DNA from: a virus
Taxonomy: Duplodnaviria; Heunggongvirae; Uroviricota; Caudoviricetes
Length of the DNA: 49,370 bases
Strand: one strand, 5' to 3'
IMG/VR virus record: IMGVR_UViG_2522572023_000012
Shown: positions 1 to 9,116 of the stretch, in pieces
How positions within the stretch are numbered: position 1 is the first letter of the stretch
Layout: each line of letters begins with the position of its first letter
Translations under genes and position numbers: made by a program
Notes under the pieces: generated by a model
Databases searched by the model: none
What the model was told of the DNA's origin: nothing
What the model saw: only the letters and a program-made list of their open reading frames with translations

Positions 1-385
1 TTGCCTCCCCCCCGTTGATGGGTAAAATAGCCGCAATTTTTCGTTTTCAACAAGCGCGGCGCGATGCCGCTTACTCAAGAAGAAAGAATTATGACGTTGT
101 CTCCTTATTTGCAAGAGGTGGCGAAGCGCCGCACTTTTGCCATTATTTCTCACCCCAATAATTAAGCCCAAATTAAAGCTCTTTTACTCTTTCAAAATCC
201 TTTCAGTTAATTGAGTAATAATCACACAACTCATTTAATAACATCATCTTATGTGGTTTCTTTAATTGAAAATTCTTTCATGTAACTTTAAATCGATCAG
301 GTTACTTTCATCAAAAATCTGTACATGTGCTTGTACATAATGTACAAAACAGCAGAGGTGTTTTGTTATTTGTACAAGGTGAGTA

Positions 386-1603
386 ATGGCGCTGTCTGAT
401 GCGTGGTTGCGTTCAGTCGTTGGAAAGGAACGTGATAAGGTTTTGGTTAAATCCGATCGTGATGGTCTGTCTGTCAGAGTATCACCGAAAGGTCGCGTAG
501 TGTTCCAATATCGTTATCAATGGGCAGGGAAAGGTGAGCGTCTTGATATCGGAACTTACCCGGCAACTGGATTAAAAGAGGCCAGAGAAGAAGTTATCCG
601 TCTCCGTGGTGAACTCGAGTCAAACCGTAATCCACGATTGGTCAAGCAGGCTGAAAAACGAAAAGCTACTGAAGCCATGACGGTAGAGTCTGTGATCCGT
701 GCCTGGTATGAAGCATATTGTGTAAAAAATAAAAAGGGTTCTGAACAGATACTCCGCTCGTTTGAGCTGCACCTGTTCTCTAAAATCGGGAATATCCCTC
801 ACGATGCAGCTACATTGCATGATTGGTTAGAAGTCTTGGAGCCTCTTAGCACTAAGACTCCAGCAATAGCAGACCGATTGCTAATTAACGCAAAGCAGGC
901 CCATGTCTGGGCGTATAAGAGAAAGCTTATTGAAACTCGCCCGCTGTCGGATATCACGGGTAAAGATATGGATATCCGTAAAGGTCAGAAGAAACGGTTT
1001 CTGACACACGATGAAATTAAAATTCTTTATGCTGCGATCGATGGCTCTAGAATGGTTCCCAAATACCGGGCCTTCATTAAACTATTACTGCATTTTGGTT
1101 GCCGTAGTTCGGAGCTAATTACTGCTAGGGTGGATGATTTTGATTTCATAAATAAGGTATGGACTGTACCGCCAGAACGACATAAGACAGGGGATATAAC
1201 AGGCGAACCGCTAAAGCGCCCCATTATTGAACCGGTTGAAGAGCTTATAAAGTACGTTATCTCTATGAACAATGGTTCCGATATGCTTTTTACTAAGGAA
1301 GGAAGCAGGGAGCCCGTTGGACGGACATCATTGCAGTCGCTGCCTTACAATTTAATGCAGTACGCATGGCGGCGTTTGGGGTATCAATTCCCTCATTGGT
1401 CTCTTCATGATTTGAGACGAACAGCACGAACAAACTTTTCTGATCTTACTGCGCCTCATATTGCAGAAATAATGCTCGGTCATAAACTGCCAGGGGTATG
1501 GCAGGTTTATGACAAGAGCGATTATTTAGAAGAACAGCGTAAAGCTTACCAGGCGTGGTGGGAGAGGGTTGAATCGATAGTTACTTGTACTTGTTCAGAC
1601 TAG
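386..1603 (+). CDS. int: Phage integrase, tyrosine recombinase (P4-like, N-terminal arm-binding DUF4102-type domain)
   Basis: 405-aa ORF; N-terminus fits the DUF4102 arm-binding pattern (DGLSVRVSPKGRVVFQYRY...GTYP), C-terminal catalytic region with HxxR and a terminal Tyr region; sits at the prophage edge. Confidence 0.9.
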   Translation: MALSDAWLRSVVGKERDKVLVKSDRDGLSVRVSPKGRVVFQYRYQWAGKGERLDIGTYPATGLKEAREEVIRLRGELESNRNPRLVKQAEKRKATEAMTVESVIRAWYEAYCVKNKKGSEQILRSFELHLFSKIGNIPHDAATLHDWLEVLEPLSTKTPAIADRLLINAKQAHVWAYKRKLIETRPLSDITGKDMDIRKGQKKRFLTHDEIKILYAAIDGSRMVPKYRAFIKLLLHFGCRSSELITARVDDFDFINKVWTVPPERHKTGDITGEPLKRPIIEPVEELIKYVISMNNGSDMLFTKEGSREPVGRTSLQSLPYNLMQYAWRRLGYQFPHWSLHDLRRTARTNFSDLTAPHIAEIMLGHKLPGVWQVYDKSDYLEEQRKAYQAWWERVESIVTCTCSD

Positions 1604-1679
1604 AACTGACATTTTGCATAGGCAGAACGCAATTATGCATATTGCGGTATAATCCCCTTCTTAAAACTGTAAGAATTGC

Positions 1680-3869
1680 TTGCTAATCCTTGCAGTTTTT
1701 GATTATAACATTTTTATTTGTTTATTAGGATTTTTGATGGAACTGTTACAGGAACACGGGGCGATACTTAAAGTTGTAATCATGCCTACTACTGGGGAAC
1801 AAACCATAATCCAAGGTTTCGATACTGGCCTCCTCAACCCAGAGATATCCAACATTCTTTTTTTATTGGCCAAAACACCAAAAGAAATTAGTGAGATTTT
1901 TGTCAATGAAAATGATAACTTTCAGCCTACTCTAAGCGGGCTAAATCCTATTTTTTTAATATCTAAAGAAAATCTTGAAAAAATACCAAATATTTATCAA
2001 ACGCCATTTTGCTTAATTTTTTGTGCTAAAGAAGATTTTTCGTATGTTTGTGCTTTAAAAAAACATTTTGCTATACCACCTATAATTTGTTGCAATTCTA
2101 AACGCGCTGATCTACCACTTAATAAGATTAATAGTATATACTCATTTGATAAGGTGCTCTTCTCTCGGTTGAAATTCATTGAGGATAAAATAAGAAAAAA
2201 TCACAGTGAAAAGAAAATATCAACGAAGTTGAAGCGAAGAGGGGCTTTATTTAATAAATCACCTTGGAGATCGACGCTTAACAATTCAACACTACCCAAT
2301 GAGTTGTTAATTGAATCACTTGGCTATATGCTATCTCCACCAAAAAGAATTAAAGATGGTAGTAGCAAAAGAGAGTTTATAGAAATAATACTTCATAGCG
2401 TTGATGCATACACCGAATGTTTAAAGGAATTAGATATACCACTTCCAACGGAAGTCTTACTTTTTGCTCCGGGTATGCACTCTTTTTTATATGATAAAAA
2501 TAATGACTTTTATGAGTTAATAACGGAAAATTTATCCACAATTGAGAAAAAATTCCTTATTGATGGAGTGTTGAGGAATCCTGGCTATTCTGGAATTAGA
2601 CTTGATATAAATTCAGATAGAAAAGAACTTTTTAAAAGTCCTGCTTTCCGTTACCTCACCTCACTAAGACGCGCTGAAATGCGATTAACAACAGCTGCGA
2701 TTACTTTATTTAGCATAAATAAAAAAATCCCAGCAATAAGATTGCCAAATGCAATAAATCATTACTCCAATTATTTGAAAAATCTTGAAGATCTTGCAAC
2801 TTCTTCTGGGATAAATAGTGAAGCATTCATCACTAAATCTAAAGCATTCAATACTGTTATTCGAAGAGCCCTTGGTTGCAAGTTGAGAACATATATAAGT
2901 AAAAACTATAGCGATTTGTCCTTTGTTTGTGATGTACCATTGGATTGGATTAGGTTTAATAACATACCTATAATGTTCAGTCATGAGATATCAAGAATAA
3001 ATGCTACGCCTGGTAACGTTCTTCTACAGAGCGCCTCTGCTTTTCCGCGCGTTTTAGTAAAAGCATCTGAGTTGAGAAAGGTTTTAGTTATACGTTCTTT
3101 TGAGCCTGATGATCACTTAAAGTTCATATTAGAGAACGCAATTGAGATATTTAAAAAACAGATGCCAGATCTTGATTGCGAGATTATTGATGTTAGATCG
3201 AAAGCTGAGTTTATTGATGCTCTAAATCAATATCAAGGTCATATTCTTGTTATGGATTGTCATGGAAACCATGATGGCAATGGGAGTCATGGATGGTTAA
3301 TAATAGGTGAGGATAAAGTGGACACTTGGAGTTTGAGAAAAATAGCAAGAATTCCTCCTATCGTAATTCTGAGTGCATGTTTAACATCTGCCCTAAGCGG
3401 TTCTCATGCCTCTGTTGCTAATGGCTTCGTTATAAGTGGTGCATTAAGTGTCATCGGAACATTACTGCCAGTAAATGCGATAGACTCTGCTGTGTTTGTA
3501 AGTCGGTTGATCTACCGGTTTTACGAGTTTCCTTCGACGCTATCTACAAATTTTACACATGTTAATGTAAGGCTTTTTCTTTCTGTTTTTCTTAGGATGT
3601 CCTATGCAAGCGATTTAATAAGAGGATTTTTATCTGAAGATTTGATACCGAATAACTCATGGAAGAAAGATGCAGTTGATATTAACATGTATATAAACAT
3701 GCTTCACCATGATTGGTATGATTATGTAATTAACAAATTGACGATGTTAACGGGGCTCACGAAAAAAGATGTACTTGATTTTATCGATAGAAAATTATTC
3801 ATAACCGAAACTATGTGCTATAGCCAAATTGGATTTCCAGATGCAATCACAATTAGTCTTAAAGATTGA
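1680..3869 (+). CDS. Large CHAT-domain (caspase-like protease) protein with uncharacterised N-terminal region; candidate defence/abortive-infection effector. True start may be internal (about 1737 MELLQEHG or 1785 MPTTGEQ)
   Basis: Uninterrupted 729-codon frame in a strongly AT-rich islet. C-terminal region shows a caspase/CHAT-like dyad: beta-strand ILVMDCHGNH (His-Gly), then about 40 aa later IVILSAC (Cys), followed by a Gly-rich hydrophobic stretch. Confidence 0.6.
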   Translation: MLILAVFDYNIFICLLGFLMELLQEHGAILKVVIMPTTGEQTIIQGFDTGLLNPEISNILFLLAKTPKEISEIFVNENDNFQPTLSGLNPIFLISKENLEKIPNIYQTPFCLIFCAKEDFSYVCALKKHFAIPPIICCNSKRADLPLNKINSIYSFDKVLFSRLKFIEDKIRKNHSEKKISTKLKRRGALFNKSPWRSTLNNSTLPNELLIESLGYMLSPPKRIKDGSSKREFIEIILHSVDAYTECLKELDIPLPTEVLLFAPGMHSFLYDKNNDFYELITENLSTIEKKFLIDGVLRNPGYSGIRLDINSDRKELFKSPAFRYLTSLRRAEMRLTTAAITLFSINKKIPAIRLPNAINHYSNYLKNLEDLATSSGINSEAFITKSKAFNTVIRRALGCKLRTYISKNYSDLSFVCDVPLDWIRFNNIPIMFSHEISRINATPGNVLLQSASAFPRVLVKASELRKVLVIRSFEPDDHLKFILENAIEIFKKQMPDLDCEIIDVRSKAEFIDALNQYQGHILVMDCHGNHDGNGSHGWLIIGEDKVDTWSLRKIARIPPIVILSACLTSALSGSHASVANGFVISGALSVIGTLLPVNAIDSAVFVSRLIYRFYEFPSTLSTNFTHVNVRLFLSVFLRMSYASDLIRGFLSEDLIPNNSWKKDAVDINMYINMLHHDWYDYVINKLTMLTGLTKKDVLDFIDRKLFITETMCYSQIGFPDAITISLKD

Positions 3870-3900
3870 CAACTGTATGTAATAAATATGGCATACTTCC

Positions 3901-3941
3901 GGCACAGAGCGAATATAACAGATCAGGTTTAGCTCTGTGCC
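3901..3941. terminator. Hairpin (10-bp stem ggcacagagc / gctctgtgcc) between the convergent CHAT gene and excisionase-like gene; possible bidirectional terminator
   Basis: Perfect 10-bp inverted repeat with about 21-nt loop in the intergenic region; no strong U-tract on either side. Confidence 0.3.
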
Positions 3942-3976
3942 ATAGGTGTACCAACTCTCATCTGAGCTAATGCTCG

Positions 3977-4171
3977 TTACTCAATAACTCCCGCAAATTT
4001 GTAAATCTTGCGTGATGCCCATTTATTTGGGCATGATTTAATATCAGGATCTGGAAAGTCTGGCCTGTATTTCTGGCCAGTTCTCCTGTTTACGCTGTTC
4101 CAGCGAAGAACGGTCGATACTGAAACGCCACAGAAGTCGGCGACTTGTTTAGTTGTCATTAAGTTGTTCAT
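3977..4171 (-). CDS. Excisionase-like / AlpA-family helix-turn-helix DNA-binding protein
   Basis: 64-aa ORF; TTKQVADFCGVSVSTVLRW is an HTH typical of Xis/AlpA-type proteins; first gene of the leftward early operon. Confidence 0.6.
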   Translation of the reverse strand: MNNLMTTKQVADFCGVSVSTVLRWNSVNRRTGQKYRPDFPDPDIKSCPNKWASRKIYKFAGVIE

Positions 4172-4791
4172 TACTTCACCTCCTGCGGTGGCTCCGGTAG
4201 CGGCATCCAGTGGGTTACTTTCGATGCCGGTTCTTCCCCATTGTCAGTAACTGCCCACCATTTGTTTCTCGAACAATCGTAATACCCTTCGAAGGTATCG
4301 CACTCAGTCCAGCCGTAAGACTTACCCCAACACCAAACATACTGTTTATCGTTCGGCATTCGCTCACTACAGCTTATCCAACCATCCGGAGTTACCGGAG
4401 AGTTGCCCGACAGCTTGTTCAACTTGTAAGTCTGGCTTACAGGTTTGGCACTATGAAGCATGGTGGCGCGGCAGGCGTTCCAGCCTTCATCAAAACCGAC
4501 TATGCCATTATTTAAAGACGGACGAGCATCTGGCACCACCAGTACTGGCTTGGCTATATATAGCGGCTGAACATACCAGCCCTTTGATAACCAACTGTCA
4601 GCAATGTTTTTGCTCCTGGTTATTGCCGGAATACCTAAGCCATTGTCTGAATGCAGCCATGCCACCGGCTCCTCTTCCAGCGATGCCAGAGCAATTTCAT
4701 AAGCACGGCGCTCAATATCGTCTCGAACCTCTAGGCTGCTGATTCGTTCTTTGATTTCTTTAATCAGTTCTTTATTGGTAAATGTGGTCAT
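4171..4791 (-). CDS. DUF551-family phage protein
   Basis: C-terminal THWMPLPEPP motif characteristic of DUF551; Cys/Trp-rich C-terminal region. Confidence 0.65.
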   Translation of the reverse strand: MTTFTNKELIKEIKERISSLEVRDDIERRAYEIALASLEEEPVAWLHSDNGLGIPAITRSKNIADSWLSKGWYVQPLYIAKPVLVVPDARPSLNNGIVGFDEGWNACRATMLHSAKPVSQTYKLNKLSGNSPVTPDGWISCSERMPNDKQYVWCWGKSYGWTECDTFEGYYDCSRNKWWAVTDNGEEPASKVTHWMPLPEPPQEVK

Positions 4792-5153
4792 TATGCTCCA
4801 GCCTCCGGCGCTTTGGGTATTACTGCCCAGTGAGTGATATTGAAGTTTTCAAGGTCCCCGACCTGAAATGTCCACTGCCATTCTCCGGTTTCTTTTTGTC
4901 CCCAGGTGTACCAGAGAGAACGCCAGCCAATCAGCCAGCCTTCTCCGTTAGCATCAAATAACAGGACACTTTCATTTGCTGGTGGCAGTTCAGCTGACAC
5001 TGGTATTATTTTGTTTTCCAGTGCCGCACATTTAGCTTCAAGCGCGTCGAATTTACGTACCAGGTACTCAGCATTTGTTTCGTTCACTTTCAGATCTCGC
5101 GGTACACATTTCCCGCGAAGAAACCCTTCCATTTCGAAAACATTCATGCGCAT
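4791..5153 (-). CDS. DUF551-like phage protein
   Basis: C-terminal ITHWAVIPKAPE motif; translationally coupled to its neighbours. Confidence 0.55.
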   Translation of the reverse strand: MRMNVFEMEGFLRGKCVPRDLKVNETNAEYLVRKFDALEAKCAALENKIIPVSAELPPANESVLLFDANGEGWLIGWRSLWYTWGQKETGEWQWTFQVGDLENFNITHWAVIPKAPEAGA

Positions 5154-7947: not shown

Positions 7948-8838
7948 TCAGGCTGCCAGATCATCGTTTCCGATGGAAGCATAATAAGCTTTTTCTGCTT
8001 CTGCCGGAGGAGTATGGCCCAGCCTTTCCAGCAATCGTCGATTGTTATACCAGTCCACCCACGTGAGTGTGGCCAGTTCCACTTCTGCACGGTTTTTCCA
8101 GCTCTTACGGTGTATTACCTCCGCTTTGTAAAGACCATTGATGCTCTCCGCCATCGCGTTGTCATACGAGTCGCCTGTACTTCCTGTTGATGCCAGTAAT
8201 CCGGCTTCCTTAAGCCGCTGTGTGTAGGCCAGCGATACATACTGAGAACCTTTATCACTGTGATGGAGCGTGCCGGACGGTCGACGGGCCCATAACGCCT
8301 GCTCCAGTGCATCCAGCACGAATGTCGTCTCCATGGACGATGAGACCCGCCACCCCACAATGTATCCGGCAAACACATCAATGATGAACGCCACATAGAC
8401 GAAGCCCTGCCATGTGCTGACGTAAGTAAAATCAGCCACCCACAGCTGGTCAGGTCGTTCTGCCACGAACTGACGGTTTACGCGGTCGCCTGCGGCAACG
8501 GCTTTCCGGCTGATGGTCGTACGGACCTTTTTACCCCGGAGAACACCGGCAAGTCCCATAACCGCCATGAGACGTGCCACAGTGCATCTGGCCACTCTGA
8601 TACCTTCCCGTAACAACTGACGCCAGACTTTACGCACACCGTATACCTTGTGATTTTCATCGTATACGCGCTGTATCTCTTTCTTCAGCCAGTCATCGCG
8701 CTGCGCACGGGCACTGCGTTTATCCGGATGATGTCGCTGTTGCTGACAGTGGTAATACGTTGACGGGGCAATATGCAGTTCGCTGCATAGCGGTCCGACC
8801 CCGTACTGCTCACGCAGCTTATCCAGCAGTGGCATCAT
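7948..8838 (-). CDS. IS3-family transposase OrfB (IS629-like)
   Basis: 296 aa with DDE-integrase character (LWVADFTYV...HSDKGSQY...DNAMAES). Confidence 0.9.
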   Translation of the reverse strand: MMPLLDKLREQYGVGPLCSELHIAPSTYYHCQQQRHHPDKRSARAQRDDWLKKEIQRVYDENHKVYGVRKVWRQLLREGIRVARCTVARLMAVMGLAGVLRGKKVRTTISRKAVAAGDRVNRQFVAERPDQLWVADFTYVSTWQGFVYVAFIIDVFAGYIVGWRVSSSMETTFVLDALEQALWARRPSGTLHHSDKGSQYVSLAYTQRLKEAGLLASTGSTGDSYDNAMAESINGLYKAEVIHRKSWKNRAEVELATLTWVDWYNNRRLLERLGHTPPAEAEKAYYASIGNDDLAA

Positions 8839-9076
8839 TTTTTCCAGAGGCGGTCGAACTCCGCCTTCGCAAAATAAGCGGAAGCCTGGCGAAGGATATC
8901 GTTACTGCGGCGCAGTTCACGATTTTCACGCTCCAGCTCTTTCAGACGCTGACGTTCAGCGGTGGTGAGCCCTCCATCACCGCCCCCGGTATCCCGCTCA
9001 TGCTGGCGAACCCAGACACGCAGAGTCTCCGGCGTACAGCCAATCTTTGGAGCAATGGAACAAATTGTCGCCCATT
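8835..9076 (-). pseudogene. IS3-family transposase OrfA, N-terminally truncated remnant
   Basis: Frame reads ...QWATICSIAPKIGCTPETLRVWVRQHERDTGGGDGGLTTAERQRLKELERENRELRRSNDILRQASAYFAKAEFDRLWKK* with no start codon; upstream sequence diverges. Confidence 0.6.
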
Positions 9077-9116
9077 GTGGTTCACTTTGATGATTTTGAC
9101 GAAAATGAATGGGATC

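Follow-up and report, generated by a model that had tools for sequence, protein, structure and literature searches.

An AT-Rich Gene between the Integrase and Excisionase of an Escherichia coli O145:H28 Prophage Matches the Borvo Defense Gene bovA

A single long, AT-rich gene lies between the integrase and excisionase genes of a Caudoviricetes prophage (IMG/VR record IMGVR_UViG_2522572023_000012; the whole 49,370-nt stretch that was analyzed is the window of this report). Its predicted product joins a large N-terminal region to a caspase-like protease region, and the locus therefore raises the question of whether this gene is antiphage cargo and, if so, whether it belongs to a defense system that already has a name. 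We find that what looks like an unnamed sensor-protease defense system is in fact the type Borvo gene, which standard defense-finder profiles detect. The best explanation of the locus as a whole, which we hold with high confidence, is that bovA is a one-gene Borvo moron of an Escherichia coli O145:H28 prophage, encoding a CHAT protease that would be released by its own sensor region and would act through abortive infection.

Gene Model and Identity with BovA

The window matches E. coli O145:H28 strains RM12761 and RM13516 at 100% identity, and the features on which the following sections draw are located in it as follows.

386..1603, plus strand: tyrosine integrase, the conserved left flank (Pfam Phage_integrase 2.9e-17, Arm-DNA-bind_3 1.9e-16, Phage_int_M 1.3e-07; PGAP)
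1604..1736, plus strand: upstream region, putative native promoter and ribosome-binding site (sequence; extent of the verified clone)
1637..3900, approximate, no strand: swappable cargo cassette (blastn breakpoints; GC 33.9%)
1737..3869, plus strand: bovA coding sequence, 710 aa plus stop (RefSeq/PGAP coordinates)
1737..3056, plus strand: N-terminal ~440 aa, presumed sensor or regulatory region (structure model)
3057..3866, approximate limits, plus strand: C-terminal CHAT (caspase-fold) protease region (Pfam, structural matches)
3261..3263, plus strand: predicted catalytic His509 codon in the DCHG motif (translation; invariant in 32 homologs)
3378..3380, plus strand: predicted catalytic Cys548 codon in the LSAC motif (translation; invariant in 32 homologs)
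3889..3953, no strand: inverted repeat where bovA and xis converge (repeat search; 25-nt arms, 76% complementary)
3977..4171, minus strand: 64-aa excisionase, the conserved right flank (phrog_1553, E=9.4e-36, positions 1–64 against 1–63 of 65)

The interval between integrase and excisionase is filled by one plus-strand reading frame, for which a mechanical call gives a TTG start and a span of 1680..3869 (729 aa); this longer version, also found in the annotation of phage Ayreon and in the PHROG profile, was dropped in favor of the 710-aa ATG start. The ATG at 1737 is almost certainly the true start, given the PGAP call, an AGGA at 1727–1730 that ends 6 nt before it, and the MEL... starts of the homologs (the equivalent N-terminus in all 32 aligned sequences); the published length of BovA is likewise 710 aa. 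GC content is 34.2% in the coding sequence (GC3 27.7%) against 49.6% in the whole window, 45.1% in int and 47.7% in the next 8 kb, and a sliding-window scan, as proposed in the first-pass annotation, finds that GC averaged over 2,264 bp reaches its minimum for the entire 49-kb window in the stretch beginning at 1601. The earlier description of an AT-rich single gene between an integrase and an excisionase is thereby confirmed in its reading frame, its low GC and, through the Pfam and phrog_1553 matches, its flanks; of the quoted "about 30% against roughly 50%", the contrast stands and the first value was set slightly low.

The translated reading frame matches the PADLOC BovA profile (PDLC03831) from end to end (E=2e-241, 801.5 bits; residues 23–728 of 729 against profile positions 3–715 of 720), and PADLOC thus identifies it at once as a known defense gene, a check that had been recommended from the start. 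In the accessible part of the supplementary record, Borvo is system SG178 of E. coli 403116 and is marked as verified (Millman et al. 2022, 10.1101/2022.05.11.491447, supplementary file 11), with a clone of 2,569 bp and a BovA of 710 aa that is annotated "CHAT protease" (IMG 2646127138); the name is given in the supplements only, and "Borvo", "CHAT" and "403116" are absent from the main text of the preprint. The comparison covers the initial 399 aa of the verified protein and the initial 399 nt of its clone, and over this accessible extent the agreement is complete: window positions 1603..2001 are 100% identical to the clone, as are the first 399 residues of the two proteins, both of 710 aa. 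Residues 400–710, which include the catalytic part, are probably the same as well, judging from the equal length and from the finding that the E. coli copies are all at least 99% identical. Over all comparable sequence, then, the gene is the type Borvo gene, the same allele as the verified protein and not a mere relative, and every testable defining feature of Borvo is present in it. The suggestion that its architecture falls outside any named system is accordingly overturned, both by the BovA profile match and by the identity over 399 aa and 399 nt; bovA was already known, since its cloning and functional demonstration date from 2022. The 403116 system shares length, profile match and CHAT annotation with the gene described here and differs from it nowhere in the portion compared; the present copy lies within a prophage of an O145:H28 STEC strain, and this prophage has partly decayed. 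A protein-cluster look-up returned no IMG accession linking the exact sequence to strain 403116, and the RefSeq entry, WP_000421881.1, is named "CHAT domain-containing protein".

The verified clone begins at the equivalent of window position 1603, and the accessible part of its entry lists expression from the "native" promoter. Upstream of bovA there is a perfect TATAAT at 1648–1653, and a plus-strand consensus scan found no full sigma-70 −35/−10 pair, so the promoter assigned here is a putative one. At the other end, the length of the clone places its last nucleotide at 4171 (1603 + 2569 − 1), and the verified fragment therefore probably held the 64-aa xis reading frame besides bovA. For this reason bovA alone is a candidate for a sufficient, single-gene system. 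There is no conserved partner gene: BovA has wholly different neighbors in the prophage, in an island and in each of two conjugative-element contexts.

The CHAT Region, the N-Terminal Region and Their Relatives

The protein had been described as carrying a His/Cys dyad in two motifs about 40 aa apart, and both motifs, GHILVMDCHGNH and IVILSAC, are found in the translation, with 39 residues from His509 to Cys548. The Pfam CHAT family (PF12770, clan CD) matches at 26.4 bits, only just above its gathering threshold of 24. A search of 5.8 billion proteins yielded 34 homologs (31–100% identity), and in a 32-sequence alignment (31–85% identity) D507-C508-H509-G510, H512, G514 and S546-A547-C548 are invariant, and conservation across the family peaks in the DCHG...SAC core and its surroundings. 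When the family profile was searched against the sequences of the PDB, the sole match was Csx29, at a marginal E=0.0094 over 45 residues; Cys548 lines up with the "GAC" in 8d9h_E, a Csx29 chain. Structural matches to the CHAT region are broader and include Csx29, separase, gingipain, caspases and metacaspases, with the following scores.

Csx29 TPR-CHAT: 16.4 (308 residues aligned)
Separases: 12.3–15
Gingipains: 13.5–14.6
SAVED-CHAT: 12.6
DdvA CHAT: 11.7
Caspases and metacaspases: 8–9

The assignment to the CHAT or caspase-like proteases is hence upheld by a Pfam match above the gathering score, by structural matches and by the invariance of His and Cys in 32 homologs. In the structure model, His509 would come after core strand 3 and Cys548 after core strand 4, which is the arrangement seen in caspases.

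The N-terminal ~440 aa are predicted to adopt a confident fold (pLDDT 81.7) with 26 invariant positions, and they include a generic flavodoxin/receiver-like alpha/beta subdomain. Comparison of the N-terminal model with solved structures gave no significant match and no specific relative. Together with the map of invariant residues, a confident model and an N-terminal region that lacks a structural relative offer starting points for the questions of what Borvo cleaves and how it senses infection.

The structural similarity to Csx29 does not extend to membership in Csx29/Craspase (type III-E CRISPR-Cas), which was rejected at 14.7 bits with the NCBIfam Csx29 model against a cutoff of 300. The TPR region, an adjacent gRAMP/Cas7-11 partner and a Csx30 substrate gene are all absent at bovA, which has int, xis and early phage genes around it rather than the gRAMP/Cas7-11 and CRISPR array of type III-E systems; moreover, the trigger of Borvo is a phage protein, whereas that of Csx29 is a target RNA. 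Membership in the SAVED-CHAT proteins, effectors of CBASS and type III CRISPR signaling, was likewise rejected, as Pfam gives no SAVED match at E<=10 and no solved structure significantly resembles the N-terminal model; a cyclase or CRISPR neighbor is also missing. Separase and the gingipains (clan CD) share only 11–14% identity with BovA and have different accessory domains, and their biology, chromosome segregation for the former and a secreted virulence protease for the latter, is unrelated to Borvo. By analogy, BovA may work like other sensor-plus-CHAT defense proteases, yet it falls outside Csx29/Craspase and SAVED-CHAT.

Published Activity and Proposed Mechanism

The Borvo clone of E. 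coli 403116 restricts phages T5, SECphi4 and SECphi18 (Stokar-Avihail et al. 2022/2023, 10.1101/2022.08.27.505566), and all three escape through missense mutation of their DNA polymerases within the proofreading (3'-5' exonuclease) cleft (10.1101/2022.08.27.505566); the polymerase residues affected in escape mutants include T13, E91 and D176 in SECphi4 and I63, F223 and T320 in T5. Wild-type SECphi4 polymerase on its own is toxic only in cells that carry Borvo, and escape alleles relieve this toxicity (10.1101/2022.08.27.505566). At high multiplicity of infection Borvo cultures collapse or stop growing, and at low multiplicity they survive (10.1101/2022.08.27.505566), a behavior that is the signature of abortive infection; the abortive-infection logic read from the architecture in the first-pass annotation has thus been published for Borvo. 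The authors left direct and indirect sensing of the polymerase undistinguished (10.1101/2022.08.27.505566). PMC11348598 repeats both findings, abortive infection and activation by phage DNA polymerase, and a T7-kinase preprint used the Borvo plasmid merely in a screen. We found no mechanistic Borvo paper in the literature up to mid-2026, where reviews list the mechanism as unknown, and no substrate of the BovA protease in published work.

We hypothesize that the N-terminal region of BovA keeps the CHAT protease inactive and that it would sense the phage polymerase, either directly or via a product of polymerase activity. The released protease would then cleave at least one essential host or phage protein, and growth would stop before the phage cycle is completed. 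The benefit to the prophage would lie in the shielding of the host population, and hence of the prophage itself, from competing lytic phages. A more specific version is offered tentatively, and we regard it as possible but rather doubtful: in phage DNA polymerases that are unrelated to one another (T5-like and SECphi4-like), a new type of sensor formed by the N-terminal ~440 aa would directly recognize the proofreading cleft and would then let the CHAT protease loose on an essential target.

In this scheme the CHAT His/Cys pair would be the effector, which we infer from conservation and from analogy with Csx29 and SAVED-CHAT. The gene might instead be BovA of Borvo with killing carried out by the N-terminal region, for example by poisoning of the replisome, and with the CHAT region confined to regulation or self-processing. 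The trigger of Borvo is a replication protein, the N-terminal 440 aa are large and well folded with many invariant positions, and we found no data on catalytic-site mutants of BovA in the accessible literature, all of which would leave room for such an arrangement. However, the strongest conservation of the whole family lies in the DCHG...SAC core, which is hard to explain were catalysis dispensable, and the other defense CHAT proteases, Csx29 and SAVED-CHAT, act by cleaving target proteins; we therefore consider killing by the N-terminal region unlikely and favor the CHAT protease as effector.

In the present strain, bovA could also be a silent passenger of a decaying prophage. The prophage does look defective: its tail tube gene is split by ISEc8, its early region contains an IS3 element and its C40 peptidase gene is frameshifted. 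The bovA gene of the O121 lineage has itself acquired a frameshift and, in one case, an IS600 insertion as well. Against this, the reading frame is intact here and identical to the commonest allele, its 399 comparable residues are those of verified BovA, and its upstream region agrees with the functional clone at every position of the accessible clone sequence. A current loss of function at this locus is thus very unlikely, and a working Borvo gene is the preferred reading.

An Interchangeable Cargo Slot and the Spread of bovA

The integrase on the left of bovA has arm-binding, central and catalytic domains. The excisionase reading frame on the right, which gives weak matches to HTH_17, MerR and Xis_Gifsy_1, carries no annotation in the RefSeq record and corresponds to orf34 of phage cdtI. 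Four related prophages have int and xis/DUF551 flanks that are 92–96% identical to those of the window and differ in the middle, with homology ceasing at 1616–1636 and returning at 3901–3926 (blastn of window 900–4800 against L003–L006). In L003 the slot holds a 566-aa AIPR/AbiU protein (PADLOC AbiU, E=2.6e-111), and the alternative occupants in L004 (1286..2314), L005 (1111..2087) and L006 (1377..2372) are, in that order, a 342-aa phrog_7779 protein, a pair of 150 aa and 160 aa, and a 331-aa minus-strand phrog_5157 protein, all uncharacterized. That the same int and xis flanks enclose different genes marks the slot as a swappable defense-cargo site, and the earlier inference that bovA is separately acquired cargo is substantiated by these four prophages. 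AbiU is, like BovA, a single-gene abortive-infection determinant in the same int–xis position; it belongs to an unrelated protein family (AIPR) and has no protease domain. The int–xis slot is therefore a small defense hotspot whose other occupants are mostly uncharacterized, and the 342-aa protein, the 331-aa protein and the 150-aa and 160-aa pair may be undescribed defense genes.

The position of bovA inside the integration module, convergent with xis, could also be taken to mean that it serves the life cycle of the prophage, for example by processing a repressor or an integration or excision factor, but we reject such a role as scarcely credible: the same int and xis occur with unrelated slot genes, AbiU among them, which shows that no particular cargo is required for integration or excision, BovA homologs occur in conjugative elements that lack a matching int/xis pair, and the cloned Borvo fragment protects a prophage-free K-12 host. 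Defense cargo is thus the reading that we carry forward.

The right-hand breakpoints of the cargo fall within the inverted repeat at 3889..3953, which is predicted to fold at −33.8 kcal/mol (z=−4.1), a stability equaled in 0 of 200 shuffles. A terminator scan 3' of bovA found no T-run, so the hairpin is not a textbook intrinsic terminator; judging from its sequence, it may act as a transcription barrier between the two convergent genes.

Among 5,426 complete RefSeq E. coli genomes, 32 carry bovA, always on the chromosome and with at least 99% DNA identity, and within its protein cluster this exact sequence is the most frequent allele, present on 507 contigs. The gene is also carried by phages cdtI and Ayreon, where it is labeled "hypothetical protein". 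It travels as int–xis cargo of a lambdoid prophage family that includes the inducible cdtI and Ayreon, which shows a route of spread. Distant homologs occur among conjugative-element transfer genes and integrases in Pantoea and in one metagenome contig, and homologs in general are found in phages, in conjugative elements and near integrases rather than mainly in the conserved, non-mobile contexts that would have spoken against mobile cargo. Another distant homolog adjoins an 881-aa SMC/AAA_23 protein.

Cargo Exchange between Integrase and Excisionase

In this prophage family, the interval between int and xis (window approximately 1637-3900) is a swappable cargo site, which is occupied here by bovA and in related prophages with similar flanks (L003-L006) by other genes:

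L003 1267-2967: AbiU/AIPR cargo
L004 1286-2314: 342-aa phrog_7779 protein
L005 1111-2087: pair of proteins of 150 and 160 aa
L006 1377-2372, minus strand: 331-aa phrog_5157 protein

Searches of Pfam, NCBIfam, and PADLOC returned no assignment for the 342-aa protein, the L005 pair, or the 331-aa protein, and the slot cargos of L004, L005, and L006 are therefore candidate undescribed defence genes. The right-hand breakpoints of these cargo swaps (window 3901-3926) fall inside an inverted repeat next to the excisionase gene:

3889-3953: unusually stable inverted repeat between the convergent bovA and xis (-33.8 kcal/mol, z=-4.1)
3977-4171, minus strand: 64-aa excisionase (phrog_1553, E=9.4e-36)

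This repeat could act as a transcription barrier or as a recombination landmark. The RefSeq annotation of E. coli RM12761 omits the excisionase ORF; the same ORF is annotated in cdtI and Ayreon (inducible phages that carry bovA), and the length of the published Borvo clone (2,569 bp) implies that it was also contained in that construct. In the region just upstream of int (window 1-385), a short CDS fragment annotated as "incomplete, missing C-terminus" (window 91-159) directly follows yjjG in the chromosome. It is probably what is left of the gene into which the prophage integrated, which on the K-12 map would be prfC.

Integrity of bovA and Its Host Prophage

The prophage that carries bovA looks defective, with three lesions in its early and tail regions:

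7948-9110: IS3-family element in the early region
30599-33792: ISEc8 (IS66 family), interrupting the tail tube gene
38656-39407: frameshifted C40 peptidase tail gene

Despite these insertions and this frameshift elsewhere, bovA is intact, consistent with a decaying prophage that has kept a useful cargo gene. Loss of 1 nt from an A-run at codon 254 (window-equivalent 2496) disrupts bovA in the O121 STEC lineage (NZ_CP028110.1, E. coli O121 RM8352; NZ_CP176678.1) and splits it into CDSs of 260 and 396 aa; one strain of the lineage also has IS600 inserted within the gene. Split annotations of bovA occur in at least 9 of the 20 RefSeq carriers listed.

Start Codon and Distant Homologues of BovA

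An upstream TTG start, which yields a 729-aa protein with an additional stretch at window 1680-1736, appears in the annotation of phage Ayreon and in PHROG family 34827. The 19 extra codons are probably an annotation artefact; PGAP and phage cdtI place the start at the ATG at 1737 (710 aa), as do the published BovA and all of the homologues. Distant homologues sharing 33-68% identity with BovA were found at three loci:

L010 8001-10136: Pantoea agglomerans CP134724.1
L011 8001-10139
L012 8001-10127

These homologues are cargo amid conjugative-element genes (TraU, TraC, TraG, TraI, and integrases) or, in one case, adjoin an 881-aa SMC_N/AAA_23 protein, itself possibly a further defence gene.
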